From contig OY970181.1 in the NCBI GenBank assembly GCA_963708045.1, forward strand, positions 387,740 through 451,739: a DNA stretch of 64,000 bases. The letters run 5' to 3'. Below, piece by piece: positions 2,650 to 63,812 of the stretch (positions are counted from its first letter, which is position 1; every line of letters starts with the position of its first letter). Source of the stretch: an uncultured bacterium (GTDB lineage: Bacteria > Patescibacteriota > Patescibacteriia > CAIQCM01). Both the position numbers and the translations under genes were made by a program. The notes beneath the pieces were generated by a model, which was given only the letters and a program-made list of their open reading frames with translations, searched no databases and was not told the DNA's origin.

Positions 2650-2693
2650 CCTCCCATCTTTACGCGGTCGCGCCAAGATGGGAGGTTTTGTTT
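2650..2693. terminator. bidirectional terminator hairpin between convergent genes
   Basis: cctcccatcttt...aagatgggagg with T-run on the + strand and A-run upstream (T-run on the - strand). Confidence 0.55.
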
Positions 2694-3474
2694 ATTGTTC
2701 GTTTCGCGCGAGGTGGTGGGGGATACCTTCGGCGTAAAGTTTTTGAATTGCTTGGGCGGTCGTTGCACCGCTGTATAAGCGAACTTGGTCTAGTGTCCCC
2801 ACAAAACCATTTACGCCGGAAGAATTATCAGCCCCAATGGTAAATACATGATTGATCACGCTTGCACTAGGACCGGTGGTAAACTCCAAGGCTCCATCAA
2901 CATAACCTTTTATTGAAGTGCTGTCACCTGTTACGACGACAAAATGCCAATTACCGTCGTTAAATTTCCTTGTTCCTGTATAACAGTTAACCGTATCGCA
3001 CATCCTTAGCTTTCCACTGTTGTCTGTTCCGATTGGTTGCCCACCGTTGCCACTACCGGGAGAAAAAATCCATTGATAAGCACCTGTTGATGTTGTTTTA
3101 AGCCAAAGTGAAGAGGTAAAAGAATTAAGCGAGACAGTAAGTGAATTTGCAGTATCAATATGTGTACCATTAAAATATATCGCATTTCCAAAAATACCTG
3201 TTGTATATGTTGAACCGTTGATTGTACCGCCAAGCGTTCCATTATTTCCATTCCCCGATGCGTCAATGATTGTTGTGCCGCTTGTTTCGTCTAATCCCCA
3301 ATCACCAACAATTCGGTCGCCAAGGCCTTGGTAAATATTGACGTCTGATTGTTGCCCCACAGCAAGGCGTGCTTTGCTCCGCGCGGTCGTTAAGGAAACA
3401 ACGGCAATTGTTGAAAGCAGGCCGATTATCGCAATGACGACCAAGAGCTCAATTAAAGTAAAAGCGCGTTTCAT
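2692..3474 (-). CDS. type IV pilin-like protein with C-terminal LamG/concanavalin-like lectin domain
   Basis: N-terminal prepilin cleavage/methylation motif KRAFTLIELLVVIAIIGLLSTIAVVSL. Then a LamG_3-like segment (GDWGLDETSGTTIIDASGNGNNGTL...GNAIYFNG). Confidence 0.8.
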   Translation of the reverse strand: MKRAFTLIELLVVIAIIGLLSTIAVVSLTTARSKARLAVGQQSDVNIYQGLGDRIVGDWGLDETSGTTIIDASGNGNNGTLGGTINGSTYTTGIFGNAIYFNGTHIDTANSLTVSLNSFTSSLWLKTTSTGAYQWIFSPGSGNGGQPIGTDNSGKLRMCDTVNCYTGTRKFNDGNWHFVVVTGDSTSIKGYVDGALEFTTGPSASVINHVFTIGADNSSGVNGFVGTLDQVRLYSGATTAQAIQKLYAEGIPHHLARNEQ

Positions 3475-7911: not shown

Positions 7912-7946
7912 AAATTCTCCCCGCCAGAGGCGGGGAGAATTTTTTA
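7912..7946 (+). terminator. intrinsic terminator
   Basis: ttctccccgcc agag ggcggggagaa plus TTTTTT. Confidence 0.6.
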
Positions 7947-7947
7947 T

Positions 7948-8047
7948 GGCGTCATTCCGAACCCGTGATGTTGTTTTGTCTAGGGTGAGGAACCTCAAGG
8001 CAGGAATTGAGACGTTGAGATCCCTCGCTCGCGCTCGGGATGACGAC
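7948..8047 (+). repeat. MITE-like ~105 bp repeat, copy A (GTCATTCCGA...CTCGGGATGAC)
   Basis: Shares termini and internal blocks (GAGACGTTGAG, CCCTCGCTCGCGCTCGGGATGAC) with 7 other copies in the window. Confidence 0.6.
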
Positions 8048-8049
8048 GA

Positions 8050-9128: not shown

Positions 9129-11603
9129 ATGAAAAAAGCAATAATTCTCGTTATTTTAGCTGTTTTAATTGCAGGCGCGACGCCTGTGGGCGCTGCTGGT
9201 GTAAACCCAGGATCGCTTGTTAAAGGCAGTTCCTCGGCCGTGTATTACATTACCGCCTCGGGAAATCGTCTCGCCTTTTCCAATGAAGCTGTCTACAAAA
9301 CTTGGTACTCGGACTACGCTGGCGTTATCAAGATAAGCGATTCCATGCTCGCGAGCTATCCGCTCCGCGGCGTTGTTTGGTATCGCCCTGGTTCTAAACT
9401 CATCAAGGTTCGTTCGGCACCGCAAGTTTATGCGGTTGCCGCGAACGGCGTTTTGCGTCCGCTCGCTTCTGAAGGCGCGGCGCGCGCTCTTTATGGTCAA
9501 GACTGGAACAAGAAAGTTGATGACCTTAATGATTCGTTTTTTGTAAATTATAAAGTCGGCACGCCGATCGCGACAATTCTTGATTATTCTCCGGCTACGG
9601 AAATCGCCGCGACCCCGACGATTGCCGCCAACGGTGCCGGCGCTTTGCCTGTTGCTTCGTCTACAAATTCAAACAATGTCAAACCCGCGAACAATTCGTC
9701 TTCGGTTTTGACGACGGCTATTTCCAACTCGGTTTCGTCCTCGGGTCGCATTATGAGCGTGGCCGTTGATCCGAAAAACGAAAATACCGCCTACATTGGT
9801 TCGGCTTCGGGCGGTATTTACAAAACCACCGACCGTGGCGAAAATTGGTCGTCGGTTGCCGATAATTTAAATTCAATGCATATCGCGGCGCTCGCGATTG
9901 ATCCGAATAATTCCGACATTGTTTACGCCGGCACGGGTGAAACCTATATGCCAGGCGACGAATACGGTTATAACGGCGTTTATGTAACCAAGGACGGCGG
10001 CAAAAATTGGTCGCTTATGCCGGGAACCCAGCCGCTTGCTTTGCGCGCGATCTCCAGTATCGTTGTTGATCGCACAAGTGGTAATCATCTTTATCTCGGC
10101 ACGAATGCCGGTGTTTACGAAACAAAAAATTCGGGAACCAATTGGAAAAAAATCGCCGACGGCTTTATTGAAAATTTGATGATCTCGGAAAAAAATCCGT
10201 CAGTTATTTTTGCGACCGGCGCGTCTTCGCTATTAATGCGCTCGTCCGACGCTGGCGCGACTTGGGAAAAAATGACCGGCTGGAATATTAAGCGCGGTCT
10301 TCCTGAAGACAACCCCTGGTTTAACCGCGTAACGATAACACAGTCCTCGGGCAAAACCGTAGTCGGCGATGCTTCGCACGTTATCTATGCGGCTTTTGCC
10401 GATCCGTATCAACTTTTCCGTTCGGATGATGATGGCACGAGCTGGCACGAAGTCGCCAAACAACCGTATAGCGGTATGCGTAACTACGCCGTGCTTGCCG
10501 ATCCTACTGACGCCGACGTTATTTTTACGGCTGGCACTTATCTTAATCGCGCGACTCAGGGCGGTTGGACGGTCGTACCGGTGGCTTTTCCGCTTTTTGA
10601 AGTCCGTAATCTTGTTTTTGCGCCAAGCAATAGCCGCGTGATGTATGCTGTAACCGATACGGGCGTCTGCGTTTCTGTAAATGGCGGCTTGGACTGGACG
10701 GTAAAAAATAAAGGATTGGATACGACGCAATGGTACGCAGTGGCTGTTGGAAAAAATGGAAATATTTACGGAGCGGTGCAAGACCACTCGCTTATGCGTT
10801 ATGACACAGCTTGGGGCGATGCCTCATGGGGCGATGCTCGCAAAATTATTACCGATCCGACGCGTGCCAATGTTGTCTATGTCCTTTCTTCTGACAATAA
10901 AGGCATCGGCCGTTCGCAAGATTTTGGAAAAAACTTTTCGCCGATCAATGGATATATGACTCCTGGGAGCGCGAGCTTAATCGCGGCTGATCCGTCAAAC
11001 GGCGGAACGATTTACGCCGCAGTTGGCGCGACCATCTACCGCTCAACTGACAGTGGCGATAGCTGGAGCGGACTTGGTAATGGCAACTCTGATGCCGCAA
11101 TTACAGCAATTAGTCCTTCGCACGCGCCTGAACGTATTGTCGTTGGTCGCGCAAATGGCGCGGTTCAGTCGGTTGTCCCAGGGATTGGTTCTAATGTCGC
11201 TACTTGGAAAACAATTTATACCGAACCGAACAAAAAGTCGGTGGCAAAAATTGTTGCTTCCGCTGACAGCATCACGATCGCCTTTAACGTTGATTGGGGT
11301 ACGCGTGTTGTTCGCTTAAAAGAAATTTATAGCGGCTCTTTTAAGCCAGCTGATTTAACCGGCGACCTTATCGGCGGCGCGTGGGTGCGTGATATGGATA
11401 TGGATATTTCCAATCCGAGCACGATCTACGTTGGCACACTCACGGGCGCTTTCGTTGGTCGCGAGGTCGCGGCCGGCAAATGGGTTTGGTCAAAAATTAA
11501 CGGTATCCCGTTTGTTGAAGTCACCGGCGTCGTGTCAAATAATGATAATTCCAAAGCCTACTTCTCAACTTGGGGCCGCGGACTCTACGAAATCACTAAG
11601 TAA
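9129..11603 (+). CDS. secreted BNR/Asp-box repeat beta-propeller protein
   Basis: Signal peptide, then at least 7 xxDxGxTW/NW repeats (TDRGENWS, KDGGKNWS, KNSGTNWK, SDAGATWE, DDDGTSWH, VNGGLDWT, TDSGDSWS). Confidence 0.7.
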   Translation: MKKAIILVILAVLIAGATPVGAAGVNPGSLVKGSSSAVYYITASGNRLAFSNEAVYKTWYSDYAGVIKISDSMLASYPLRGVVWYRPGSKLIKVRSAPQVYAVAANGVLRPLASEGAARALYGQDWNKKVDDLNDSFFVNYKVGTPIATILDYSPATEIAATPTIAANGAGALPVASSTNSNNVKPANNSSSVLTTAISNSVSSSGRIMSVAVDPKNENTAYIGSASGGIYKTTDRGENWSSVADNLNSMHIAALAIDPNNSDIVYAGTGETYMPGDEYGYNGVYVTKDGGKNWSLMPGTQPLALRAISSIVVDRTSGNHLYLGTNAGVYETKNSGTNWKKIADGFIENLMISEKNPSVIFATGASSLLMRSSDAGATWEKMTGWNIKRGLPEDNPWFNRVTITQSSGKTVVGDASHVIYAAFADPYQLFRSDDDGTSWHEVAKQPYSGMRNYAVLADPTDADVIFTAGTYLNRATQGGWTVVPVAFPLFEVRNLVFAPSNSRVMYAVTDTGVCVSVNGGLDWTVKNKGLDTTQWYAVAVGKNGNIYGAVQDHSLMRYDTAWGDASWGDARKIITDPTRANVVYVLSSDNKGIGRSQDFGKNFSPINGYMTPGSASLIAADPSNGGTIYAAVGATIYRSTDSGDSWSGLGNGNSDAAITAISPSHAPERIVVGRANGAVQSVVPGIGSNVATWKTIYTEPNKKSVAKIVASADSITIAFNVDWGTRVVRLKEIYSGSFKPADLTGDLIGGAWVRDMDMDISNPSTIYVGTLTGAFVGREVAAGKWVWSKINGIPFVEVTGVVSNNDNSKAYFSTWGRGLYEITK

Positions 11604-11616
11604 ATTATTCTGAAAA

Positions 11617-11661
11617 TAAAACACCCCCACCCCGATGTACATCGGGGTGGGGGTGTTTTTG
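11617..11661. terminator. bidirectional terminator between convergent genes
   Basis: acacccccaccccgatg tac catcggggtgggggtgt with flanking A/T runs. Confidence 0.65.
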
Positions 11662-11668
11662 ATATTGA

Positions 11669-12172
11669 TTATTCGCCAACTAAATAATTTAAATTTCGGC
11701 TCCAGGCTGAGAATGTTGTGGTGCAACCGTTAGGTACCGAGGTTGGGTTTTCCAGGCTAAGTGCCATCATATAATTAGTCGGCAGGCCTGTATATCCAAA
11801 CGCGCATTTACTGATTGGTTTATACCCGCGCACGTAATAATAAGCATAAGGCGTTCCGGTGTTGATTGGGTCAACCGGTATGTTGCTTAAATAATTTGGT
11901 TTAATTTCCATTGCCGTAAAACTTCCGCCTGGATAAGCGACCGAGACGCAGTCGCAGGTGGCTGGGCAAGCCTGCCCGCAAGTTGGATAAGCGCCAGTTT
12001 CGTCAAAGTAGAGATCAAGGGCGGTTTTGATTTGTTTAAAATCAGCAACGCGTTTGGCGTCCCGCGCTTTGCTTCTTGAGTTACTCAAAGACACGACCGC
12101 AATCGTGCTGAGGAGGCCGATAATGGCAATGACGACCAGTAATTCAATAAGAGTAAAAGCACGATGAGACAT
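11669..12172 (-). CDS. type IV pilin-like protein (prepilin-type N-terminal cleavage/methylation domain)
   Basis: MSHRAFTLIELLVVIAIIGLLSTIAVVSL followed by a PilA/GspG-like segment (KRVADFKQIKTALDLYFDETGAYP). Multiple Cys residues. Confidence 0.8.
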   Translation of the reverse strand: MSHRAFTLIELLVVIAIIGLLSTIAVVSLSNSRSKARDAKRVADFKQIKTALDLYFDETGAYPTCGQACPATCDCVSVAYPGGSFTAMEIKPNYLSNIPVDPINTGTPYAYYYVRGYKPISKCAFGYTGLPTNYMMALSLENPTSVPNGCTTTFSAWSRNLNYLVGE

Positions 12173-12181
12173 GACGAAATA

Positions 12182-12206
12182 TCTAATGTCTAATATCTAA
12201 TCCGAT
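12182..12206. repeat. ctaat/attag word-repeat array immediately upstream of a pilin start codon
   Basis: atctaatgtctaatatctaatcc. Confidence 0.5.
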
Positions 12207-12292
12207 AAACGACCAATTGGTTTTGTGCTGATATTATACCACCAATACAAAAATGCCCCGATAATCATCGGGGCATTTTCATTTCTAACTAT

Positions 12293-12353
12293 ACGCTAAA
12301 CGCTATACCCTAAACCCTAAAAATTACACTTCAATTATAACCGGAAGAATCAT
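12293..12353. repeat. direct repeat: duplicated copy of the rnj 3' end (last 9 codons MILPVIIEV* plus ccctaaa flank)
   Basis: ccctaaaaattacacttcaattataaccggaagaatcat matches 14025-14063 with 2 mismatches. Confidence 0.65.
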
Positions 12354-12354
12354 T

Positions 12355-13170
12355 TTATTCCGTCACGACCGTAGCCACTTGGTGCGAACGAAGACCTTCG
12401 GCGTACATTTTTTTTATTTGCGCTAAACTAAGGGTTGAAGAATAAACTCGCGTGTCGTCTATGTTGCCGTGGAACGGATCGCCTAATGCGATTGGTGAAT
12501 AGCTCCCGATCGCTAAAGTGACACTATTATAGGCAGTTATTGTACAGGTGGCTGTTTTGCCGACCTCGTGTCCGTTAAAGAAAAGTTTCATCGTCTGGTT
12601 GACCGAGTTGATTGAAAGGGCGACCATTGACCAGGAGTTCGCGGGAATTTGCGGCCCAGTCAGGTATAAAGAATACGACCAGCCCACACCAGCACAACTC
12701 ATCAAGGATTCCAAGTTGCCGTCATGGATTCGATATTCGTATTGCGCTAATTTGGAGAGGATCGTATTATATCCAGTCGTGCTTGTCGGATAGATCCATG
12801 TTGTGAAAGTCGCATTGGTCGCCTGTAGGTTAAGCGTTGAACTAAGATAATTTGATCCTGAAAAATTCGCCGAACATCCGGTATTTCCTGGGGCGTTGCT
12901 CGTTGACCATCCGGCGCCGCCACTCCAGGTCGCAGTGTTGCCGTTTCCAGAAGCATCGCTCGCGGTATTGCCGGAACATTCATTAAAAAGCCATTCGCCG
13001 ACGAGTTGGTCGCCGAGCCCGTTGCGCAAGCTTTGATCAAACGATTGTCCGGCAGCAATTTTTCCTTTATCACGTGCGGTCACCAAAGACACGACCGCGA
13101 TTGTGGAAAGCAGTCCGATAATCGCGATCACAACAAGAAGTTCAATTAGGGTAAAGGCGCTACGTTTCAT
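12355..13170 (-). CDS. type IV pilin-like protein with LamG/concanavalin-like domain
   Basis: Prepilin N-terminus KRSAFTLIELLVVIAIIGLLSTIAVVSL. LamG_3-like segment (GEWLFNECSGNTASDASGNGNTATW). Confidence 0.8.
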   Translation of the reverse strand: MKRSAFTLIELLVVIAIIGLLSTIAVVSLVTARDKGKIAAGQSFDQSLRNGLGDQLVGEWLFNECSGNTASDASGNGNTATWSGGAGWSTSNAPGNTGCSANFSGSNYLSSTLNLQATNATFTTWIYPTSTTGYNTILSKLAQYEYRIHDGNLESLMSCAGVGWSYSLYLTGPQIPANSWSMVALSINSVNQTMKLFFNGHEVGKTATCTITAYNSVTLAIGSYSPIALGDPFHGNIDDTRVYSSTLSLAQIKKMYAEGLRSHQVATVVTE

Positions 13171-13220
13171 GCTCTATTTTTTAAAATTAAACCGTTTCTT
13201 TTCATCACTCTCTAGCAGTA

Positions 13221-13757
13221 TCAATACCAACTTGATGCTCCTGGCGTGAAGATGGCCCAACCGCTATTTGTGTGGGTGGGGTCATAAAACGGATCACTTG
13301 CTGAGAGTGTCCCTTCCGGCGTGCAGTAAGCTAATAATTTATAATCTATTCCGTTTGAAGTATACACATATGTATTCCAGCCAGCCTGACTCCTGCAACC
13401 AGCTAAGGCAGAGCTTGGGTTAGTTTTGCCCATATTGGTATCGTCTGGTAGTCGTCCGATATAATTAGGGGCTAGATTGGGAATCCATCCGTTTGAACCA
13501 GAACTGTCATGGCTACCAAAAGTTGAAGTTACTCCCCACCAACTGCAACACCCGCTTACGCCCGTTGAAGGATAGGCGTCAAAGTTGGTGTAATAGAGTT
13601 CCAGCGCTTTAGAAATTTGGACGAGATCAACTTTTCGCTTCTGGTTTCGCGCGTTCATTCTCGTTGTACTTAAAGACACCACCGCAATCGTGCCGAGGAG
13701 GCCGATAATGGCAATGACAACAAGTAATTCAATAAGAGTAAAAGCACGACGAGTCAT
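13221..13757 (-). CDS. type IV pilin-like protein
   Basis: MTRRAFTLIELLVVIAIIGLLGTIAVVSL. The 5' ~75 nt are ~95% identical at nucleotide level to the pilin at 11669..12172. Confidence 0.8.
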   Translation of the reverse strand: MTRRAFTLIELLVVIAIIGLLGTIAVVSLSTTRMNARNQKRKVDLVQISKALELYYTNFDAYPSTGVSGCCSWWGVTSTFGSHDSSGSNGWIPNLAPNYIGRLPDDTNMGKTNPSSALAGCRSQAGWNTYVYTSNGIDYKLLAYCTPEGTLSASDPFYDPTHTNSGWAIFTPGASSWY

Positions 13758-13765
13758 TAAACGAA

Positions 13766-13803
13766 TGTCTAATTTCTAATGTCTAATGTCGAGTGACTAA
13801 TCC
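13766..13803. repeat. ctaat word-repeat array, upstream of pilin start and abutting a MITE-like copy
   Basis: gtctaatttctaatgtctaatgtcgagtgactaatcc. Confidence 0.5.
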
Positions 13804-13922
13804 GCCGTCATTCCGAGCCTGTAAGGTTGGTTTGTCCAAGGCTCGGCCGAGCTCAGCTCGGCGAGGAACCACGGAGCCTGTTTTGAGACTTTGAGTTCCT
13901 TCGCTCCGCTCGGGATGACGCC
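13803..13922 (+). repeat. MITE-like repeat copy B
   Basis: ccgccgtcattccgagcctgtaaggttggtttgtccaaggc...gagactttgagttcc...ctcgggatgacgcc. Confidence 0.65.
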
Positions 13923-14033
13923 TAACGACAGACGCTGGCTTTGGCCAACGAACTCACTGATATTATATCACTAAATTAAAAATATCATCGCTTGAGCGAT
14001 GATATTTTTTAACTCTACGCTAAACCCTAAAAA

Positions 14034-15944
14034 CTACACTTCAATAATAACCGGAAGAATCATCGGGCGGCGTTTGGTTTGTGACCAAAGGTATTGGCCA
14101 ATGTCATCGCGAATTTTATTTTTGGTATATTCCTCAAAAGCCGGGGAACGCGGGTCAGCGTCGTGAAGGATTTTGCGGACACGGGCGCGCGATTTTTCCA
14201 CAAGTTCGTGCGCGTCTTTAAGATAAACGAAGCCGCGGGAAATAATATCGGGACTGCCGATAAGTTTGCCGGTGTTTCGTTCCATCGTGCAGATGACAAC
14301 AAACATTCCGTCCTCGGCCAGCTGCAGGCGGTCACGCAAAACGACGTGCGAAACGTCGCCAACGCCCAGGCCGTCCACCATAATATATTCAATCGGGTAT
14401 TTGTCGTCGGTCATTTTGCCGCCGTTTCCATCAAATTCAACAATCTGTCCGTTGTCCGGAATAAAAATGCGGTCGCGTGTTACGCCAACTTCTTCGGCCA
14501 AGTCGGCATGCGCGTGGCGCAAGAACAGGTTGGCGTAGCCGGGGAGGAAATAGCGCGGCTTTGTGAGCATAATCATTTCTTTAAGCTCTTCTTGTTTGGC
14601 ATGACCGCCAGCGTGCACGTCCATATTGGCATAATGCACGACTTTAGCGCCTTGGCGGATTAGGGTGTCTTTAAGCGATTGCACCGTGCGTTCATTTCCT
14701 GGAATGACCGAAGAAGAGAAAATAACCATATCGCCCTCTTCTAAACGGACGGATTTGTGTTCGCGGTTTGCGATGCGCATTAGAGCTGCGTTTTCTTCGC
14801 CTTGCGCGCCAGTGCAGATGATAATAAGTTTTTCCGGAGCAATGTGCTTAATCTCGTCTTCTTCAATAATCGTGCCCGGCTTGTATTTCATATAGCCAAG
14901 CTGGTGGGCAATTTCCACGTTGGAATGCATTGATCGTCCGAGAAGCAAAACTTTGCGGCCGGTTTTTTCGGCGATCGTTAAGAGTTGCTGAACGCGGGTG
15001 AGAAGCGAAGCAAACGTGCCGACGATAATGCGGCCTTTGTGTTTGGAAACAATACCTAAAAGTTCTTCGCTTACGACCGTTTCCGAAATTTGTCGTCCGG
15101 GTGAAGCGGCCGAAGTTGAATCGGACACAAGCAAGAGGACGCCGCGTTCGCCAAAAGCGGCGACGCGCGCGGGGTCGGCCGGCAGTTCTGGCGGAATCGG
15201 GTCGCGATCAAATTTAAAGTCACCGGTAAAAATTACCGTTCCGTATGGCGTATGCAAAGCAACGCCGAAAGAGTCGGCAATATTGTGGTTAATATGAAAT
15301 GGTTCAAAAACAAAATTTTTGCCCATCTGAATGCGAACATCGGCCGTTTTAACCAATTGAATTTTGAGTTGTTGAAGGTTGCCGTATTCTTCTTGGCGTT
15401 TTTTAATAAGACCAGCGGTAAGCGGGGCGGTATAAATTACCGGCCAGCCAAGCTTGGGCATAACGTGAGGAATGCCGCCGATGTGGTCATAGTGTCCATG
15501 GGTAATAATCACGCCGCGGATATTTTTTTCTTTTCCGCGCAAGCAGGAAGTGTCAGGGATGATGTAATCAATCCCAGGCATTCCTTCTTCGGGAAACATC
15601 AAACCCATGTCCACGATAATAATATCATCGCCCATTTCCACGACGGCGCAATTTCTTCCGACTTCTTCTAGTCCGCCAAGTGCGTAAACTTTTAATTTGG
15701 TCGGATCGTATTTAATTGTCGGCATTGGTGGCTTCACGACTTCGCGCGGTTCGGCGCGAAAACGCGGACCACGTCCGCCTCCGCGCGCGCCGCCGGAATG
15801 TTTTTGATTAGGCGGATGCCCGCTTGGTTTTTTGGAACCTTGATTAAAACGATTTACACCCTGATTGCTTTTTGCCGGTGTAAAGGGGGCGTGATTTTTT
15901 GGATTGTCGTGCCTTTGAACCGGGTGCTGTTGGTTTTGCACCAT
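14034..15944 (-). CDS. rnj: ribonuclease J (metallo-beta-lactamase/beta-CASP), with ~75-aa Arg/Gly-rich N-terminal extension
   Basis: HGHYDHIGG motif plus beta-CASP region. N-terminal low-complexity stretch GGARGGGRGPRFRAEPRE. Confidence 0.85.
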   Translation of the reverse strand: MVQNQQHPVQRHDNPKNHAPFTPAKSNQGVNRFNQGSKKPSGHPPNQKHSGGARGGGRGPRFRAEPREVVKPPMPTIKYDPTKLKVYALGGLEEVGRNCAVVEMGDDIIIVDMGLMFPEEGMPGIDYIIPDTSCLRGKEKNIRGVIITHGHYDHIGGIPHVMPKLGWPVIYTAPLTAGLIKKRQEEYGNLQQLKIQLVKTADVRIQMGKNFVFEPFHINHNIADSFGVALHTPYGTVIFTGDFKFDRDPIPPELPADPARVAAFGERGVLLLVSDSTSAASPGRQISETVVSEELLGIVSKHKGRIIVGTFASLLTRVQQLLTIAEKTGRKVLLLGRSMHSNVEIAHQLGYMKYKPGTIIEEDEIKHIAPEKLIIICTGAQGEENAALMRIANREHKSVRLEEGDMVIFSSSVIPGNERTVQSLKDTLIRQGAKVVHYANMDVHAGGHAKQEELKEMIMLTKPRYFLPGYANLFLRHAHADLAEEVGVTRDRIFIPDNGQIVEFDGNGGKMTDDKYPIEYIMVDGLGVGDVSHVVLRDRLQLAEDGMFVVICTMERNTGKLIGSPDIISRGFVYLKDAHELVEKSRARVRKILHDADPRSPAFEEYTKNKIRDDIGQYLWSQTKRRPMILPVIIEV

Positions 15945-30073: not shown

Positions 30074-31144
30074 ATGAATAAAATATTGCTTTATGTTGCT
30101 GGCGGTTGCGCGTGCTTAGGGATAGGCGCGTATTTTTATAGTGTCTTGCCAGCGGCAAAGACCGTAGTGATTTTGGATAATAAACAAAACGATGTAAACC
30201 AATCGGTTGTTAAAAAAGAAGAAGCGCAATTGCCAAAAGAAGAGCCGATTATTTCAATAATTTTTGGCGGCGACATAATGCTGGGGCGGAGCGTGGCCGC
30301 GCAAATTAAAACCAATGGCACGGATTATCCTTTTGCAAAAATAAATAACACCATCGCGGCTGCGGATTTTGCGATCGCGAACCTAGAGGGACCGATTACG
30401 AAAATAAATAACGAACCAGCCAACCGAATGCGTTTTCATTTTGACCCATCGCTAGCGCAAGAGCTCGCGATGGTCGGCTTTGACGCTTTTTCGCTCGCCA
30501 ATAATCATGGTTTGGATCAAGGAAGCAAAGGACTTACTGATGACAAGAAAAATCTTGAGGCCGTTGGTCTAAAATATTTCGGCGATCCATCCGCAACCAA
30601 CGGAAGTGTTTATGAATTTACCGCGGCCGGAAAAAAGATCGCCGTCATTGGTTTTCAAATGGTTTACGGAAAACTCGATCCCAATGGATATGCCAAAGCG
30701 ATTGCCGACGCCAAAAAGAACGCCGATATTGTTATCGTAATGCCGCACTGGGGCATTGAATACGAACATACCGCGACAAAGTCGCAAAAAGATTTAGCGC
30801 GGCAATTTATTGACGCCGGCGCCGACATTATCGTCGGCTCGCATCCGCACGTTTTGGAAGGGATAGAAATATATAAAGACAAGCCGATTTTTTACTCGCT
30901 CGGCAATTTGGTTTTTGACCAATATTTTTCCGAAGAAACTCAAGAGGGGATGATGTTGCGTTTAAATTTATCGGCCAGCAAACAAACGATTGAACTTTTG
31001 CCATATAAAATTCCCCAAAGCCAGCCGGTTTTGGCCGAGGGCGAGGTAAAAGCCAAAATGCTTAACGACATCGCCTCGTGGTCGGCGGCGGAATTAAAAG
31101 AGCAAATAATTGCAGGGAGTATCGCCGTCATTCCAAGTCTGTAA
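30074..31144 (+). CDS. CapA/PGA_cap family metallophosphoesterase (poly-gamma-glutamate synthesis-like)
   Basis: GGDIMLGRSV, ANLEGPIT, and GFDAFSLANNH...DQG motifs. Confidence 0.7.
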   Translation: MNKILLYVAGGCACLGIGAYFYSVLPAAKTVVILDNKQNDVNQSVVKKEEAQLPKEEPIISIIFGGDIMLGRSVAAQIKTNGTDYPFAKINNTIAAADFAIANLEGPITKINNEPANRMRFHFDPSLAQELAMVGFDAFSLANNHGLDQGSKGLTDDKKNLEAVGLKYFGDPSATNGSVYEFTAAGKKIAVIGFQMVYGKLDPNGYAKAIADAKKNADIVIVMPHWGIEYEHTATKSQKDLARQFIDAGADIIVGSHPHVLEGIEIYKDKPIFYSLGNLVFDQYFSEETQEGMMLRLNLSASKQTIELLPYKIPQSQPVLAEGEVKAKMLNDIASWSAAELKEQIIAGSIAVIPSL

Positions 31145-31167
31145 AGTCGGTTAAGTCCAGACCTCTT

Positions 31168-31273
31168 GCCGTCATTCCGAGCTCGTAAGGTCGTTTTGTC
31201 CAGAGCGAGGAAGCATGGAGTATAATTAGAGACTTTGAGTTCCCTCATCGCTTCGGCGCTTCGGGATGACGCC
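31168..31273 (+). repeat. MITE-like repeat copy C (first of tandem array)
   Basis: gccgtcattccgagctcgtaaggtcgttttgtccagagcgagg...gagactttgagttccctc...cttcgggatgacgcc. Confidence 0.65.
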
Positions 31274-31300
31274 ACACACCCCTTCGTCGCTCCTACCCCC

Positions 31301-31434
31301 GCCGTCATTCCGAGTCCGTGCGGTCGGTGTGTCCAGGACGAGGAAACACGAAGCTTGATTTAAGACGTTGATAGTTACAATCTCCGTGCGAACTAAGACG
31401 CTTAGCGATCTCTCGCTTTGTATGGGATGACGCC
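31301..31434 (+). repeat. MITE-like repeat copy D (longer variant)
   Basis: gccgtcattccgagtccgtgcggtcggtgtgtccaggacgaggaaacacgaagc...gggatgacgcc. Confidence 0.6.
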
Positions 31435-31460
31435 ATATACCTCGCTATCGCTTCTACCCC

Positions 31461-31560
31461 GCCGTCATTCCGAGCCTGTAAGGTCGTTTTGTCCAAGGCG
31501 AGGAAACACGAAGCTTGCTAGAGACTTTGAGTTCCCTCGTTACCACTCGGGATGACGCCG
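31461..31560 (+). repeat. MITE-like repeat copy E
   Basis: gccgtcattccgagcctgtaaggtcgttttgtccaaggcgaggaaacacgaagc...ctcgggatgacgccg. The spacers between copies are also similar (ctcgct..ctacccc). Confidence 0.65.
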
Positions 31561-31621
31561 AGTGTGAGCTCTTGGCAAAAATAAATCTTTGGGTTATTAT
31601 GGCGTCTGCAAGCAAATATTA

Positions 31622-39275: not shown

Positions 39276-39373
39276 TTTTTTCCTCCCCTTAAGGTAAGGG
39301 GAGGTAGGAGGGGTTATGAAAGGATTATAACTCACCCTACCCGCTCTTACCTTACAGAGAGGGGAAAGAAATT

Positions 39374-39478
39374 CCGTCATCCCGAAACGCCGAAGCGGTG
39401 AGGGAACTCAAAGTCTCTAGCAAGCTTCGTGATTCCTTGCCTTTGACAAACGACCTTACGGGCTCGGAATGACGGCGG
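39374..39478 (-). repeat. MITE-like repeat copy F (inverted orientation)
   Basis: ccgtcatcccgaaacgccgaagcggtgagggaactcaaagtctc...ctcggaatgacggcgg is the reverse complement of the family consensus. Confidence 0.65.
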
Positions 39479-39512
39479 ATTAGAAATTAGATATTAGGTA
39501 TTAGGTATTCAA
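39479..39512. repeat. attag word-repeat array immediately upstream of argS start
   Basis: attagaaattagatattaggtattaggtattc. Confidence 0.5.
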
Positions 39513-44255: not shown

Positions 44256-45770
44256 ATGCCAACTGAAAAAAAATACACTCAGGAAGACTTAAACAAAACG
44301 CTTTGGGCGGCGGCTGATTCGTCACGCAGCAATGTGGACGGTGGTGTTTACAAGGATTACGCCCTCACGATGCTATTTTTAAAATACGTCAGCGATTTGA
44401 ATAAAAAGCGCTACGCCGAGTATAAGGCGCGTTTTAAGAACGACGAAAAGCGCGTTGAAGAAAAAATGAAGCTGGATCGCTTTTATCTTCCTCCTAAGTC
44501 GTCGTTTGATTACATCTACAGTAAGATTGAGGAAGACAACATTGGCGAAGAAATTAATAAAGCGCTACACCGCATTGAAGACGCCAACAAGGAAAAGCTG
44601 GACGGCGTGTTTAGTGTGGACTTTAATTCTGAATCAGTACTGGGAAAATTGGATTCGCGCAATAAAATGCTCCGCCATCTTATTCAGGATTTTGCCAAGA
44701 TTGACCTTTCGGATGTCGGCGACGACATTATCGGAAATTCGTACATGTACATGATTGAACGCTTTGGCGCCGATGCTGGGAAGAAAGCCGGAGAATTTTT
44801 CACAACTAAATCCGTGGCGCGGCTCGTGGCGATGCTCGCTGAACCAAAAGAAGGCGACCGGATTTCCGACCCTGCTTGTGGATCGGGCGGCTTGCTTCTT
44901 TTGGCTGGCGAAGAGGTTGAAAAGAAAGGCTCAAAAAACTACGCGCTTTATGGTCAAGAATCAACTGGCTCCACTTATCAGCTTGCACGGATGAATATGT
45001 TCTTGCACGGCAAAGACTCGGCGCGGATTGAATGGGGCGACACGCTTAATAACCCACTCTTGGTTGAAAATGACCAGCTTATGCATTTTGATGTGGTCGT
45101 TGCCAATCCGCCGTTCTCGCTTAAAAAGTGGGGCGCCGAACACGCCGGATCAGATAAATACAACCGTTTTTGGCGCGGCATTCCGCCCAAGGACAAAGGC
45201 GACTTTGCCTTTATTACTCACATGGTGGAAACCGCCAAACCCAAAACCGGCCGCGTGGCCGTTATTGTTCCGCACGGTGTACTTTTTAGGAGCGGTGCCG
45301 AAGGTAAAATCCGCACCGAGCTATTAAAAGAAAATATCATTGATACCGTGATCGGATTACCTGCTGGTTTATTTCAGACAACCGGTATCCCGGTCGCCGT
45401 TTTGGTTATTGACCGCTCACGCGAAAAAGGCGGCGCGAATGAAAAGAAGAAAGATGTTTTGTTCATTGAGGCCTCTAAGGAATTCAAACCCGGAAAAGCG
45501 CAAAACACCTTGACCGACGAAAACATCGCCAAAATTTTTGACACCTACAAACAACGCAAAAATATCACTAAGTTTTCACGCAAGGTTGAATTAAAGGAAA
45601 TTGAAGAAAATGATTTCAATCTCAACATCACACGCTATGTTGACACCTTCATTGAAGAAACTCCGATAGACATCAAAGCCAACCTCCGTGAACTCGCCGC
45701 CCTTGAGCCGGAGCTTAAGAAGCTAGAAAAACAGATGGATGAGTATCTAAAAGAGCTTGGAATTAAATAG
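44256..45770 (+). CDS. hsdM: Type I restriction-modification DNA methyltransferase subunit (N6-adenine)
   Basis: HsdM N-terminal domain, then an N6_Mtase domain with NPPF motif (VVANPPFS). Confidence 0.9.
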   Translation: MPTEKKYTQEDLNKTLWAAADSSRSNVDGGVYKDYALTMLFLKYVSDLNKKRYAEYKARFKNDEKRVEEKMKLDRFYLPPKSSFDYIYSKIEEDNIGEEINKALHRIEDANKEKLDGVFSVDFNSESVLGKLDSRNKMLRHLIQDFAKIDLSDVGDDIIGNSYMYMIERFGADAGKKAGEFFTTKSVARLVAMLAEPKEGDRISDPACGSGGLLLLAGEEVEKKGSKNYALYGQESTGSTYQLARMNMFLHGKDSARIEWGDTLNNPLLVENDQLMHFDVVVANPPFSLKKWGAEHAGSDKYNRFWRGIPPKDKGDFAFITHMVETAKPKTGRVAVIVPHGVLFRSGAEGKIRTELLKENIIDTVIGLPAGLFQTTGIPVAVLVIDRSREKGGANEKKKDVLFIEASKEFKPGKAQNTLTDENIAKIFDTYKQRKNITKFSRKVELKEIEENDFNLNITRYVDTFIEETPIDIKANLRELAALEPELKKLEKQMDEYLKELGIK

Positions 45771-45773
45771 TCT

Positions 45774-47588
45774 ATGAAAATTTCATCATTAGAAATTAAA
45801 GACTTCCCGCCAATTAAAAATCTAAAGATGGAAAATCTTGGGGATATTGTAATTATTGCTGGAGCAAATGGTTCGGGGAAAAGCAGACTTAAAGAGGCTA
45901 TAGTAAGTACCTTTCAAGGTGGGAATCAAATGTCCATCTCTTTGCTGGCAACAAGAGAAAAAGAAAATGAAGATTTTGGAGGAGGTACTCTAACTGCTAC
46001 ACAAGGGGTTGCAAGTCAAACGCTAGCTGAGTATATGAGGAAGAGGCGGTATGGCCGTGGCCAGTATGTTGGTTCTCTGGTCCAAATAGATTCGCAACGA
46101 AATATTCAGACCACTCAATACCCACAGGTTAGTTGGCAAGTTTCTGATCCAGATGAAGTCGAAACGCCAAGTACTTTTTATTATCAAAATTTTACCAACA
46201 GGTGGCAAGACTTCATGACTTATATTCATAAAAAAGTAGCTGCCTACCAAAATCAACTAGCTACGGAAGTTATCAATGGGTCAGAAATAACAGCAAAGAC
46301 TATTAAGGAAAAATTGCCACACCCACTACAGAAATATAAAGAAATCTTTAAAACTCTACTTTCGGAAAAAGAGCTTCTTGATATTGATCCATTATCACCT
46401 CGTGAATTTCAATACCGGGATAAAACCGGCGTAGTCTTACCATTTAATTCCTTAAGTTCTGGCGAGCAAGAAGTTGTTAAGATTCTGTTTGATGTTGCAA
46501 GGAAAGATATAAAAGACTCGGTAATTATTGTGGATGAGCCTGAACTTCATTTACACCCAACTCTTACATTCAAATTAATTGAAGCTCTTAAATCCGTGGG
46601 GGATCACACAAATCAATTCATATTTTTGACACACTCTGCTGATTTAATTTCTACCTATTACTCGACTGGTAATGTTTATTTTATAGACTCAGAGCAGGGT
46701 GGCGCTAACCAGGCACATAGGCTAAGCGATCTTAATCACAGCCATAAGGAGCTGGTAAGCTTGATAGGTGAAAATCTTGGGCTGTTTGCAGTAGGAAAAA
46801 AACTTGTATTTGTTGAAGGTGAAGATTCTAGTACGGACAGGCTTGTATACCATGCATTGGCACAAAAGTATTTGCCAGAGGCAAAGGTCATACCCGTTGG
46901 TTCAGTTGAGAATTTGATTACTTTAAATGTTTTTGAGCGGCAGATTAGAAATTCTATATTTGGAATTGACCTATATATGGTCCGAGATAAAGATGGGCTA
47001 TCTACTACTCAAATTAGCGCTCTTGAAGATGGTGGTAAGATAAAGTGTCTTAGGAAAAGACATATTGAAAATTATTTTCTTGATTCAGATGTTTTGTTTA
47101 AAGTTGCGGAAAAGCTTTATATAACCACTACAAAACCTACTGTTACACATCAGTATATTGAAGAACAGCTTAAAATCATTGCTTCTGAACAAGTTAGTCT
47201 TAACTTACTTCAAAATACAAAAGAATATATAGCAACAAATCATAACTTTGATATTCCTACTGTCAAATCACTTGATACAAAAAATTGCGTTGATGTGGTT
47301 AATGAGTTCTCTTTTGAAATAGCGAGTGTTTTACATAGCCTTGTGTCTAACCTGTCTGACGTAAAGTTGAAAGAATGGATGAACGGAGAAAAAGAAAGAC
47401 TTGATGGCGCGTTGACCAGCGATAAGTGGAAAGATGAATTTAGGGGTAAAAATATTTTCTCAAAGTTATGTAGTGATGTCCTTGGTGAAGATAAAATCAA
47501 AATACGACAAGTATATATTGACGTTGCTTTGAATGAAAAACCGGAAGTTTTTAGTGATATTAAAGGAATACTGGAAAGTTTTAAGTGA
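45774..47588 (+). CDS. OLD-family-like ABC-ATPase + TOPRIM-like nuclease (Gabija GajA-like architecture), embedded in the hsd operon
   Basis: Walker A IIAGANGSGKS, signature-like LSSGEQEV, Walker B IIVDEPELHLHP, and H-loop FLTHS. C-terminal TOPRIM-like Glu (FVEGEDSSTD) and DxD (YMVRDKDG). Start is 3 nt after the hsdM stop, and the stop overlaps the next hsdS start. Confidence 0.65.
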   Translation: MKISSLEIKDFPPIKNLKMENLGDIVIIAGANGSGKSRLKEAIVSTFQGGNQMSISLLATREKENEDFGGGTLTATQGVASQTLAEYMRKRRYGRGQYVGSLVQIDSQRNIQTTQYPQVSWQVSDPDEVETPSTFYYQNFTNRWQDFMTYIHKKVAAYQNQLATEVINGSEITAKTIKEKLPHPLQKYKEIFKTLLSEKELLDIDPLSPREFQYRDKTGVVLPFNSLSSGEQEVVKILFDVARKDIKDSVIIVDEPELHLHPTLTFKLIEALKSVGDHTNQFIFLTHSADLISTYYSTGNVYFIDSEQGGANQAHRLSDLNHSHKELVSLIGENLGLFAVGKKLVFVEGEDSSTDRLVYHALAQKYLPEAKVIPVGSVENLITLNVFERQIRNSIFGIDLYMVRDKDGLSTTQISALEDGGKIKCLRKRHIENYFLDSDVLFKVAEKLYITTTKPTVTHQYIEEQLKIIASEQVSLNLLQNTKEYIATNHNFDIPTVKSLDTKNCVDVVNEFSFEIASVLHSLVSNLSDVKLKEWMNGEKERLDGALTSDKWKDEFRGKNIFSKLCSDVLGEDKIKIRQVYIDVALNEKPEVFSDIKGILESFK

Positions 47589-48820
47589 TTATGAAAATTA
47601 ATAAACCACAAACAAACATACCTCATGGTTGGAATTTTTATAAACTTAGCGATCTCCTTACTGTTGTTGTAGATAATCGTGGTAAAACACCGCCTATTCA
47701 AACAAGTGGGATCCCTATGGCAGAGGTAAATGCTATTGGCGATAAGAATATTGAATATTCTGAAATAACTAAGTTTGTTAGTGAAGAAACTTATAAAACA
47801 TGGTTCCGTAAACATTTAGAGAAAAATGATATCCTCTTTTCTACCGTTGGAAGAACTGCGTCTTGCTCTCTTTATACTGCAAAAATAAAGACGGTAATTG
47901 CTCAAAATTTAATAGGGTTAAGATTCGGAAAAGATAATCCTGAGTTTATGTTTTATCTTTTAACCCAAGACAAGAACAATCAACAATTTAAGAATATTGA
48001 GATGAACGCCGCACAGCCAAGTGTTAAAGTATCCCAAATGATACGACTTGAATTTTTGCTTCCACCCCTCCCCGAACAAAACCGGATTGTTGCAGTATTG
48101 GAAACTTGGGATAAGGCGATTGAAAAATTGGCGGAAAAAATTGAGATTAAAAAAGAGATTAAAAAAGTTTTAATGCAAGAATTATTGACAGCCCAGAAGC
48201 GTCTAATCGGATTTAAAGATAAATGGGCGAACGTAAAACTTGCTGATATTGCTGAAATTTTTTCGGGAGGAACGCCCGATACAAGCAATCAGGATTTCTG
48301 GAGTGGTGAGATAAATTGGATAACTCCGACAGAAATTACTAAAACAGGCAAATATATAGTATTAGAAACAGAGAAGAAGATCACAGGCGCTGGTCTTAAA
48401 AATTGCTCAGCAAAATTACTACCTAAAAATTCTTTGGTCATATGTACTCGTGCGACGGTTGGAGAATGTTCAATTTCTACATATCCAATTTGCACAAACC
48501 AGGGATTTAAAAATTTAGTTCCTAAGAAAAATACAACAGTTGAATATCTGTATTATTTTATTAAGTCAATTAAATCAAAACTTATAAAACTAGGATCCGG
48601 TAGTACTTTTCTTGAAGTCTCAAAGGGTGACATTGAAAAATTAAAATTATATCTACCACCACTAACTGAGCAAATTGCGATTGCAAATATTTTGACCACA
48701 GCCGATAAGGAAATTGCTGAACTCGAAAAAACCCTCTCACTTTTAGAAGAACAAAAAAGATATCTTCTTAACGAACTGATTACTGGTACAATCAGAACAC
48801 CTGAAACATTATCAGTCTAA
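47585..48820 (+). CDS. hsdS: Type I restriction-modification specificity subunit (two target recognition domains)
   Basis: 411 aa with two TRDs separated by conserved helical repeats (LPPLPEQNRIV / LPPLTEQIAIA). Confidence 0.85.
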   Translation: MIMKINKPQTNIPHGWNFYKLSDLLTVVVDNRGKTPPIQTSGIPMAEVNAIGDKNIEYSEITKFVSEETYKTWFRKHLEKNDILFSTVGRTASCSLYTAKIKTVIAQNLIGLRFGKDNPEFMFYLLTQDKNNQQFKNIEMNAAQPSVKVSQMIRLEFLLPPLPEQNRIVAVLETWDKAIEKLAEKIEIKKEIKKVLMQELLTAQKRLIGFKDKWANVKLADIAEIFSGGTPDTSNQDFWSGEINWITPTEITKTGKYIVLETEKKITGAGLKNCSAKLLPKNSLVICTRATVGECSISTYPICTNQGFKNLVPKKNTTVEYLYYFIKSIKSKLIKLGSGSTFLEVSKGDIEKLKLYLPPLTEQIAIANILTTADKEIAELEKTLSLLEEQKRYLLNELITGTIRTPETLSV

Positions 48821-48830
48821 AAATAACAAT

Positions 48831-49670
48831 ATGAAAAAAGTACTATCCGCCATCAATCATCCGGCCATGTTTGAACAGTCCGAGGTTTGACGGGTTTGGC
48901 ATAAAGAGCAATGGTTTTTTGCGATAAACGATGTGGTTGGGGTTTTGTCGCAAACCTCAAATGTTACCGATTATATTAAGAAAATGAGGCAGCGTGATGC
49001 TGAATTAGCCAAAGGGTGGGGACAGATTGTCACCCCCCTTTCCGTTAAAACAAAAGGCGGCGTTCAAAAGCTCAATTGTGCCAGTCTAGCCTCTATTTTT
49101 CGCATTGTTCAGTCAATTCCTTCGCCACAAGCTGAACCTTTTAAGCGTTGGTTGGCAAAAGTTGGGGGCGAGCGGATAGAAGAAATGCAGAACCCCGAAC
49201 TTGCGCTTAACCGTTCTCGTGAATATTGGAAAAAGCATGGCCGAAGCGAAAAATGGATTCAACAAAGAATGATGGGACAAGAATCTCGCAATAGGCTGAC
49301 GGATTACTGGAAACAGACAGGGGTTAAGGAGGGACAGGAATATGCCGTGCTCACGAATATTATCCATCAAGAATGGAGCGACTTGAGCGTAAAAGATCAC
49401 AAAGCGCTTAAGGGGTTGTCCAAGGTCAATAATTTACGCGACCATATGAATGAGGCCGAGCTAATTTTTACAGCTTTGGCAGAGCTTTCTACTAGGCAGA
49501 TTGCTGAGACGGAAAAAGCCATCGGGTTTGATGGAAATAAGTCGCCAGCCTTGCGCGGAGGACAAATTGCAAAGAATGCACGCTTGGCGCTTGAGGAAAA
49601 AACTGGAAAACGAGTAGTGAGCGGAGAAAATTATTTAACAGGCGGACGGAAAACAAAACGATTAAAGTAA
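48831..49670 (+). pseudogene. Bro-N/DinD-like (KilA-N-type) DNA-binding domain protein with in-frame TGA at 48888-48890
   Basis: Translation from ATG 48831 gives MKKVLSAINHPAMFEQSEV*RVWHKEQWFFAINDVVGVL. The segment after the TGA resembles the Bro-N/DinD N-terminal motif (IR..xxxxxWFxAxDV). The track ORF starts only at GTG 48933. Confidence 0.5.
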
Positions 49671-49674
49671 TCAT

Positions 49675-52600: not shown

Positions 52601-52863
52601 GGGATTGCTTTGTTTTGTTTAAACTACCCGACGACTTATATATTGCCATTATTTTGGATATTTTTAATCTGGTTAAGCGTGAGGCGATTGTTGATTGGTA
52701 TAAAAACCTTGACGCCAAGCGTCAGATTATTAATAAGCTCGACGACTATCTTTATGATGTCGTTAAGAACGAGAAAAAAATTGATTTGTCCGACGACAAT
52801 ATGAAGTTAATTATTTCAAGCGTGCTTTCGCTCGCAGAAAATAATTATGAGCTCTTTGTTTAG
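49675..52863 (+). CDS. hsdR: Type I restriction enzyme R subunit (helicase-nuclease)
   Basis: N-terminal nuclease region. SF2 helicase motifs (TQGSGKSLTMV, DEAHRSQ) and HsdR C-terminal domain. 1062 aa. Confidence 0.9.
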   Translation: MLENVHFDEARQSQLPALELLLAMGYKYISAEECLRQRGGDTSNFILTDIAAEKLMAINGYEINGVESKFSEKDVRDAIDELEHIQYEGLIDTAQKIYNIVMPTSGGKTIKVSVGGKTVSKNFRFIDFQNPRNNTFHVTAEFEASGKQNIRPDIVCFVNGIPLAVIENKKSSVDVVEALNQMNRNQGAEFCPKLFTYTQLLVGTNGKELKYGTTGTPNKFYAVWKEKGMTDDEIESEVVSVMQKKIYLNDYNNVCDDLNGDTRDALPQSVRLVTEQDKGIVFLFKPERLLELTKNYILFDAGVKKLSRYQQFFAINKMMARIFEEEASPVGGERRHGGLVWHTQGSGKSLTMVMFVKALIENPHIINPRVIIVTDRRDLDKQIRDTFKNCNLKKEVIQATSGQHLLGLINDKNLAVITTLVHKFESASKKKTGLVDYDKNIFVLVDEAHRSQNGIANIEMNRIIPNACYIGFTGTPLMTSEKESWKKFGGYIDRYTIDDALADKIILPLIYEGRYVDMVQNEEQVDRQVERITADLNDKQKRDLQKYIGSRIVKDNPQRIVEISYDIEKHYIRNFQNTGLKAQIVAPSKFSAILFQKFFQTNGKIRTAVVISDEHDDGDEADTHKKEVVDYLNTVRKNHSSVESYEKEVINSFKNNEDGIEIIIVVDKLLTGFDAPRNTVLYLAEDLRDHNLLQAIARVNRLFENKKLPKTAGYIIDYSENAKNIDTAMKLFGNYDKDDVKGTLIDVKEKVEELEQSYALVHDLFGGIKGSSDDEAFLRVLSDDPKREMFYKSLAAFIKNLNECFVLQDFVHEFKHLDIYTRELKKLMELRKAASLKYADRIDLAEYKQSLVNILDKYIDARGVELLTKQINITDRKQFEEAIDTLGSDRSKAEAIAMQTNKTISEKMETDPEFYERFSKKIDLILQEMRQGKLADVAALKQLKLIKDDVINKKDNDLPEPIVALKGSDVFYRNLRDCFVLFKLPDDLYIAIILDIFNLVKREAIVDWYKNLDAKRQIINKLDDYLYDVVKNEKKIDLSDDNMKLIISSVLSLAENNYELFV

Positions 52864-63552: not shown

Positions 63553-63555
63553 GTC

Positions 63556-63660
63556 CGCCGCCATTCCGAGCCTGGTTAGTTGCTTTGTCTTGACGAGGAA
63601 TCACGGAGCAATTAAGAGACGTTGAGTTCCCTCGTCGCTACCGCTTCTCGGGATGACGCC
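63556..63660 (+). repeat. MITE-like repeat copy G
   Basis: cgccgccattccgagcctggttagttgctttgtcttgacgaggaatcacggagc...gagacgttgagttccctcgtcgctaccgcttctcgggatgacgcc. Confidence 0.6.
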
Positions 63661-63669
63661 ATACACCCC

Positions 63670-63776
63670 GCCGTCGTTCCGAGTCTGTAAGGTCGGTTTG
63701 TCCAAGGCGAGGAATCACGGAGGTGAATTTGAGACGTTGAGTTCCCTCGTCGCTACCACTTCTCGGGATGACGGCG
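63670..63776 (+). repeat. MITE-like repeat copy H
   Basis: gccgtcgttccgagtctgtaaggtcggtttgtccaaggcgaggaatcacggagg...gagacgttgagttccctcgtcgctaccacttctcgggatgacggcg. Confidence 0.65.
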
Positions 63777-63812
63777 ATGGGTGGAGTTAATATCTAAATG
63801 ACGTCCTAAAAA

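Follow-up and report, generated by a model that had tools for sequence, protein, structure and literature searches.

What is a second copy of the end of an RNase J gene doing one nucleotide behind a pilin gene? The question is raised by a stretch of 64,000 nucleotides (nt) of contig OY970181.1 (assembly GCA_963708045.1, positions 387,740 to 451,739; hereafter the window, numbered from its first letter) from a Magasanikbacteria-like member of the Patescibacteria. Read along the minus strand, rnj is followed by an intergenic region, the pilin gene P2, a LamG-domain pilin gene, a single nucleotide, the orphan rnj tail, a second intergenic region, the pilin gene P1 and a bidirectional terminator; the other border of this slot is a convergent BNR/Sortilin-like gene (9129..11603). 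By comparison with related loci, the slot appears to be a hypervariable type IV pilin island, and the second rnj tail is probably a non-functional relic of recombination within it.

The rnj product carries the metallo-beta-lactamase, beta-CASP and C-terminal domains of an RNase J, and its terminal sequence RRPM[VI]LPVIIEV*, which forms the end of the RNase_J_C domain, is kept in 36 of the 36 related loci that reach the end of the gene. Because the tail is conserved across these relatives, the copy at 14034 can be taken as native and that at 12324 as derived. An earlier reading of this DNA from its letters alone (the sequence-only reading) had described the second tail as near-exact, with 2 mismatches over ~42 bp, and alignment bears this out: 12307-12353 and 14017-14063 differ at 3 of 47 nt, 2 of which fall within the last 42 nt. 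The full direct repeat, 12303-12353 and 14013-14063, is identical at 47 of 51 nt and contains exact runs of 17, 11 and 14 nt; the longer interval drawn earlier, 12293-12353, takes in two extra 7-nt units of the orphan copy (a 14-nt indel). Over the coding part 28 of 30 nt agree and both changes are silent (P = 0.05). The orphan still encodes a nine-codon peptide, 1 nt past the stop codon of the LamG pilin gene, as had been proposed. A Shine-Dalgarno sequence was not recognizable before its ATG, and all matches to Rfam families lay far below gathering scores.

The duplicated piece is specific to rnj. Its coding core, ATGATTCTTCCGGTTAT[T/A]ATTGAAGTGTA[G/A], occurs exactly twice in the window against 0 expected from shuffles, and among the ends of 136 open reading frames (ORFs) in the window that of rnj is the only one with a second copy. 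These two results rule out a chance or generic-motif origin of the coding part and uphold the earlier assignment of the piece to the rnj 3' end; as an account of the repeat as a whole, chance resemblance or a generic post-gene motif deserves next to no credence. What speaks for it is the flank. The sequence-only reading had itself raised the prospect that the ccctaaa flank is a common 3' element, which holds for the flank and fails for the 28-nt coding core: the window contains about 20 period-7 arrays, the ccctaaa/cgctaaa part among them, each of 3-5 imperfect 7-nt units, all of them intergenic in DNA that is ~88% coding. Fourteen of the roughly 20 lie no more than 11 nt from a start or stop codon, some form inverted pairs around an intergenic region (27109/27152, 34780/34837, 57304/57339 and 16367/16436), and comparable heptamer arrays also lie 3' of rnj in three of the comparison loci (L001, L063 and L083). 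Because such arrays are generic and the core occurs only twice, the flank was dropped as evidence while the core was retained.

A further block of similarity lies at the pilin 5' ends. P1, P2 and the LamG pilin all carry the class III signal peptide of type IV pilins (PF07963), and the near-identity noted earlier between the first codons of P1 and P2 was confirmed at a slightly lower value, 93% over the first 75 nt (70 of 75) as against a claimed ~95%. Over codons 1-30, 83 of 90 nt agree; past codon ~30 identity falls from 92% to 59% (codons 31-60), and the bodies of the two proteins are unrelated (31%), each having orthologues elsewhere. Where P1 and P2 share a residue the codon is identical at 23 of 28 positions, whereas other pilin pairs of the genome, which encode nearly the same N-terminal peptide yet differ in codons, have identical codons at 9-12 of 26-30. 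Because the codons themselves are identical, the common 5' segment reflects descent and not protein constraint. Besides the genome itself, the closest P1 homologue found in a homologue search is 59% identical; the corresponding search with P2 led to L083 and L085. Three further P2 paralogues (56-59% identical) lie elsewhere on the same 1.19-Mb contig. The window also holds a second LamG-domain pilin gene (2692-3474, minus strand, 260 amino acids (aa)), next to a Bac_transf sugar transferase gene; its product is 36% identical to that of the gene at 12355.

While the sequence-only reading had treated the pilin similarity as separate from the tail repeat, the two are probably opposite ends of the same event, and the tail repeat is not necessarily an isolated 51-mer. 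The same order of parts follows both tails: a heptamer array, an intrinsic terminator, a TGNTATAATATCAG box, a heptamer leader and a pilin start. The box TG[A/G]TATAATATCAG has its only two exact copies of the window at these positions, and likewise TGNTATAATATCAG; the terminator hairpins were found by direct folding, a simple terminator/promoter scan having missed them. From terminator to leader, module A (behind the native tail) and module B (behind the orphan) match at 41-57% of alignment columns, and the tail is thus much better preserved than the non-coding middle (28/30 versus 41-57%). Module A also holds a copy of a family resembling miniature inverted-repeat transposable elements (MITE-like; ~105-125 nt, ends CGCCGTCATTCCGAG...CTCGGGATGACGCC), which has at least 8 copies in the 64 kb: 7944-8049, 13803-13922, four in 31121-31575, 39340-39480 (minus strand) and two in 63554-63790. 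The final codons of one ORF, 30074..31144 (PGA_cap), extend into a MITE-like copy.

The comparison loci indicate which part of the arrangement is new. Relatives with a 77-85% identical RNase J each carry something different between rnj and the BNR gene. In L001 and L080, whose rnj is about 84-85% identical to that of the window, the slot has no pilins and rnj faces the BNR gene, the arrangement that the sequence-only reading had suggested looking for; L001 has a reverse coiled-coil ORF there. A reverse PemK gene followed by a P1 orthologue occupies the slot in L063 and L091; a LamG pilin gene, 114 nt, a P1 orthologue and three reverse genes in L002, L088 and L090; a P2 orthologue, a spacer homologous to the P2-LamG spacer of the window and then P1 in L085. 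L083 and L069, from two samples, carry P1, P2, a P2-LamG-type spacer, 11 nt from the start of a LamG gene and an orphan rnj tail of 17 codons, and in an unrelated context L086 has a LamG pilin gene, 79 nt and a P1 orthologue. Outside the window, then, one finds rnj-P2 (L085), P2-spacer-LamG (L083) and LamG-P1 (L002/L088/L090 and L086), and because each of its adjacencies occurs in relatives the order rnj-P2-LamG-P1 looks ancestral. Judged from these gene orders, what is new is more likely the placing between LamG and P1 of the module, which spans the rnj tail to pilin codon ~30, than the arrival of a P2-LamG cassette, although topologically the two descriptions give an identical product. Of the cassette insertion or duplication event proposed earlier, the duplication stands; the inserted P2-LamG cassette is disfavoured by the adjacencies in relatives and by the lack of a recombinase. 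The claim that pilin 5' ends are a substrate for recombination gains support from two relatives: L085 (950-1010) has P2, a P2-LamG-type spacer and P1, L002 (6829-6910) has an L085-type rnj-P2 intergenic region directly before its LamG pilin gene, and both arrangements look like deletions through exchange between conserved pilin 5' ends.

Taken together, a model for the origin of the second tail can be proposed. Starting from the order rnj-P2-LamG-P1, the module would have been placed between LamG and P1. One junction would have been guided by homology inside the conserved pilin 5' segment; it is in frame, and the tract of identity stops at codon ~30. The other would have been made without homology, joining the LamG stop+1 to rnj position -27: the LamG 3' end has no similarity to rnj upstream of -27, a comparison in which microhomology is not assessable without the parental sequences. 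A piece of a conserved neighbour gene is repeated downstream in the same orientation. Two routes could lead to this outcome. DNA from a close relative may have been taken up and joined by homology-facilitated illegitimate recombination, or a break may have been repaired by copying an ectopic template, with end joining as the final step; the template may have been the rnj-P2 junction of this genome or of a close relative. The preservation of the tail and its silent changes lean towards a copy whose coding role ended only recently.

Scanning every comparison locus in six frames turned up four additional independent lineages with an intact orphan rnj tail: L024, L030, L047 and L083/L069. Over the five lineages, the two changes in the window included, 22 of 22 differences between native and orphan tails are silent (joint P about 1e-13 if neutral), and decayed orphan tails were not seen in the comparison loci. 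Three of the five orphans (window, L024 and L047) begin at the same codon, -27. Orphans accompany 5 of about 72 rnj ends; for the 1067 remaining ORF ends of these loci the figure is 1 (Fisher p = 5e-6). The L083 orphan, an independent case recovered from two samples, joins the LamG stub to a flank that is colinear with the DNA following rnj in L001; this flank is only 84% identical to L001 and the anchor crossover is not locatable, while a sliding-identity comparison aimed at a mosaic rnj in L083 gave no clear breakpoint, the gene being L002-like throughout. The inserts of L024 and L047 are unique among all comparison loci, none of which is a close relative of either, and no recombinase was found in the inserts of L083, L024, L030 and L047. 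An origin in foreign DNA is clear in these four loci; in the window it has to be judged from only 2 differences, both silent.

The single non-rnj case among the 1067 ORF ends is in L064 (12300-14220), where a gpmI-like gene has a second copy of its last ~28 codons 1.8 kb downstream, seemingly free of mismatches over ~90 nt, the two tails flanking a reverse AbiEii toxin/AbiEi antitoxin pair. An assembly artefact was ruled out for the rnj tails: the spacing across the window's junction, LamG-183 nt-P1, is reproduced in two other assemblies from other samples, L083 and L069 come from different samples, and the two L024 copies share no long k-mer.

Concentration of orphans at rnj could also be the work of site-specific integration, with the last ~27 nt of rnj as attachment site, P2-LamG as an integrase-less cassette or trans-mobilized remnant, and the orphan as attR. 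Orphan tails in five independent lineages at a rate far above that of other ORF ends, the three that begin at codon -27 and the similar 3'-tail duplication flanking the AbiEii/AbiEi cassette in gpmI of L064 are all in line with such a process, yet we consider it unlikely. No recombinase lies between any pair of copies; the inserts are unrelated, range from 43 nt to 1.66 kb and have no common sequence; the boundaries vary (-27 in three lineages, -18 and -53); and the L024 copies, with no shared run >5 nt, could not recombine as att sites in their present form. The pilin order follows conserved adjacencies and not a self-contained cassette, no viral contig carries the tail (two degenerate tail patterns; plasmids and circular reads were not searched), and cumulative GC (guanine plus cytosine) skew rises steadily across the window with no switch at the locus, which makes a dif/Xer site unlikely. 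An internal tandem duplication would dispense with foreign DNA altogether: unequal or illegitimate sister-strand exchange from rnj -27 would be followed by pilin 5' deletions and divergence in place. Both tails do carry the same lineage-specific codons (ATGATTCTTCCGGTTAT...), unlike any relative with >60% rnj identity, and the resemblance of L085 and L002 to pilin 5'-end deletions implies that such exchanges occur in the clade. We nonetheless find this origin improbable, given that at least two further deletions are needed to reach the present order, that a neutral orphan of the same age as the diverged intergenic DNA would be unlikely to keep 28 of 30 nt (binomial P about 0.01 at 25% divergence), and that the window's changes are silent only. 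Moreover, L083, L024, L030 and L047 each show unrelated flanks around the two copies together with silent differences only, a combination that in-place decay does not give.

Might the orphan persist because it works? A translated nine-codon mini-ORF (TAA-A-ATG, coupled to LamG), acting with terminator B as a leader or attenuator of P1, or through its peptide, would fit the intact peptide and stop codon in 5 of 5 orphans, the uniformly silent differences, the ATG or GTG with which three orphans begin and the terminator hairpin 3' of the orphan in the window, L024, L030 and L083. We hold a working element to be very improbable all the same. The L030 orphan starts at Pro -6 and has no in-frame start codon, which makes the mini-ORF doubtful as a general explanation; the L083 orphan reaches 8 codons further upstream; and the window orphan has no recognizable Shine-Dalgarno sequence. 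No orphan is common to diverged lineages and none, therefore, is demonstrably old. Had each orphan served until lately as the functional rnj end of another lineage, differences confined to silent sites would be expected just as much.

The recombination relic that we favour has its own difficulties. The match of 41-57% is low for a middle enclosed by two blocks of high identity. If the whole module was copied once and recently, its middle must have been remodelled afterwards, by a MITE insertion, slippage of heptamers and a newly formed terminator palindrome; failing that, each block was homogenized on its own. The array after the stop, the terminator, the extended -10 and the ATTAGA-type leader are largely generic here and are no proof of a common descent of the middle. 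The mosaic could also result from slippage of heptamers, from the MITE insertion, from a reshaped palindrome or from ongoing conversion of short tracts. The databases hold no close relative of this species, and the source may be its own genome or another strain, with copying in either direction. Finally, random illegitimate joins do not predict a -27 boundary common to 3 of 5 orphans or the enrichment at rnj. These two observations prompt the tentative idea, which we think possible though rather unlikely, that across Patescibacteria some site-directed activity opens the chromosome time and again within the last ~9 codons of rnj, making them a favoured site of breakage or landing. Candidates for this activity would be a nuclease, a trans-acting recombinase, or an obstacle to replication or transcription where rnj terminates, and the captured DNA would be foreign or ectopic, from 43-nt hairpins to pilin gene pairs, with orphans sharing a start codon. 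A site-directed process at the rnj 3' end is, as such, unsupported.

The two repeats bracket P2, the LamG pilin gene and a MITE-like copy, as the sequence-only reading stated, and 12354-14012 contains nothing else. Exchange between them would formally leave rnj intact because both copies encode MILPVIIEV and a stop codon, and a rare deletion could in this way remove P2 and LamG without harming rnj. The further claim that such excision would restore rnj is formally sound, but the longest shared exact run is only 17 nt, for which reason RecA-driven excision should be inefficient, and no deletion variant was seen. Exact-protein look-ups with rnj, P1, P2, the LamG pilin and BNR, in search of deletion or pre-insertion variants, gave only short contigs of the same strain broken in the repeats; the available assemblies are fragmented here. 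Between the repeats there is no recombinase, terminal inverted repeat or att-like palindrome. Two classes of mobile element were considered and rejected. Transposon or MITE insertion with target-site duplication is at odds with a repeat of at least 51 nt (versus 2-15 bp) and with the lack of an inverted repeat joining the ends of 12354-14012; an integron cassette is at odds with the lack of an attC-like imperfect palindrome at either boundary and of an integrase among the proteins scanned (part of the window).

Table 1. Features of the rnj-pilin locus of the window, and orphan rnj tails in comparison loci.
Feature	Locus	Position	Strand	Remarks
rnj	window	14034..15944	-	RNase J, 636 aa; Pfam Lactamase_B, RNase_J_b_CASP and RNase_J_C (match extends to the last residue)
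Native tail, copy A	window	14034-14063	-	last 9 rnj codons and TAG; tail conserved in 36 related loci
Heptamer array A	window	14010..14033	-	2 units, directly after rnj stop; 3' part of repeat copy A; generic array class
Intrinsic terminator A	window	13975..14009	-	inverted repeat I6; perfect hairpin, 15-nt arms and U run; -18.9 kcal/mol, z = -5.6
Extended -10-like box A	window	13957..13970	-	TGATATAATATCAG; putative P2 promoter
MITE-like element (copy B of the sequence-only reading)	window	13803..13922	.	120 nt; interrupts leader A, absent from module B
Heptamer leader A	window	13758..13802	-	ATTAGAC-type units, just 5' of P2 start; similar arrays precede other start codons
P2	window	13221..13757	-	178 aa; Pfam N_methyl; codons 1-30 (13668-13757) 92% identical to P1; rest orthologous to P2 of L083/L085
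LamG-domain pilin	window	12355..13170	-	271 aa; Pfam N_methyl and Laminin_G_3; 40-41% identical to LamG pilin of L002/L088
Putative illegitimate junction	window	12354..12354	-	single nt between LamG TAA and orphan ATG; no similarity to rnj upstream of the ATG (from sequence)
Orphan tail, copy B	window	12324..12353	-	MILPVIIEV and TAA; 28/30 identical to copy A, both changes silent
Heptamer array B	window	12282..12323	-	4 units; extends repeat copy B; repeat search
Intrinsic terminator B	window	12249..12281	-	-26.5 kcal/mol, z = -4.7; stem differs from terminator A (51% of alignment columns match)
Extended -10-like box B	window	12228..12241	-	TGGTATAATATCAG; putative P1 promoter
Heptamer leader B	window	12173..12204	-	upstream of P1 start; repeat search
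P1	window	11669..12172	-	167 aa; codons 1-30 (12083-12172) in the putatively duplicated module; body orthologous to post-LamG pilin of L002 and L086
Bidirectional terminator	window	11617..11660	.	inverted repeat I1, between P1 and BNR gene; 21-nt arms; fold -37.7 kcal/mol; right edge of variable slot
Period-7 arrays (starts)	window	1208, 5817, 7875, 12178, 12296, 13764, 14013, 16367, 16436, 26159, 27109, 27152, 34780, 34837, 39479, 57304, 57339, 60458, 61811, 63520
Orphan tail	L024	4129-4271		spacer to native tail 83 nt; start -27; 8 silent changes
Orphan tail	L047	1926-2027	reverse	spacer 43-nt hairpin; start -27; 4 silent changes
Orphan tail	L030	2117-2280		spacer 105 nt; start -18; 3 silent changes
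Orphan tail	L083	3405-3455 (= L069 2369-2420)		spacer 1.4 kb; start -53; 5 silent changes

Elsewhere in the window, a type I restriction-modification system occupies 44256-52863 (HsdM, an AAA_21/AbiEii-like ATPase, HsdS and HsdR). GC content is 0.35-0.43 over about 46-54 kb, against about 0.47 in the rest of the window, and because of this lowered GC the region 44256-52863 is probably a horizontally acquired island.

Taken alone, the second rnj tail is an ordinary rearrangement scar, probably with no function of its own; P1 has its own predicted terminator and promoter. Its value is that of a dated footprint: the pilin repertoire beside rnj has been rebuilt by exchanges within the conserved pilin 5' segment and illegitimate joins in an uncultured bacterium with a small genome. 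Such outcomes are expected from DNA uptake and recombination, a process in which the type IV pili of these bacteria are presumed to take part. Intact orphan rnj tails offer a simple sequence marker with which events could be counted across thousands of Patescibacteria genomes and rnj tested as a hot spot.

How does the locus compare with known systems? The prophages e14 and phage 21 integrate into icd of Escherichia coli, and SCCmec into the 3' end of rlmH (orfX) of staphylococci, each using dedicated integrases (Int, Ccr) and one fixed crossover site. As in those systems, the insert lies between directly repeated 3' ends of a housekeeping gene, the gene is left intact and the copies differ mostly silently; unlike them, the rnj loci have no recombinase, unrelated inserts and varying boundaries. 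In the pilE/pilS system of Neisseria, pilin genes with a shared conserved 5' segment recombine to give chimeric pilins. Here, too, a conserved 5' segment across several pilin genes supports recombination, but each of the P1, P2 and LamG pilin genes is full-length and has a start and leader region to itself, in contrast to the silent 5'-truncated cassettes of pilS, and there is no evidence of programmed high-frequency conversion. Orphaned 3' ends are also left in Rhs and contact-dependent inhibition (CDI) toxin loci and in the effector-immunity arrays of the Vibrio cholerae type VI secretion system, where 'sequential displacement' has been attributed to homology-facilitated illegitimate recombination (PMC5361080). 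The fragment in the window differs in being 27 nt of a neighbouring housekeeping gene, not a variable toxin end, with one orphan per locus and no sign of fragment re-use. What the rnj locus has in common with these arrays is a conserved upstream homologous anchor, another end joined without homology and a displaced 3' gene fragment left downstream, all within a polymorphic array of surface or interaction genes; the orphan tail is thus most likely a familiar type of recombination scar, met here in a new setting.

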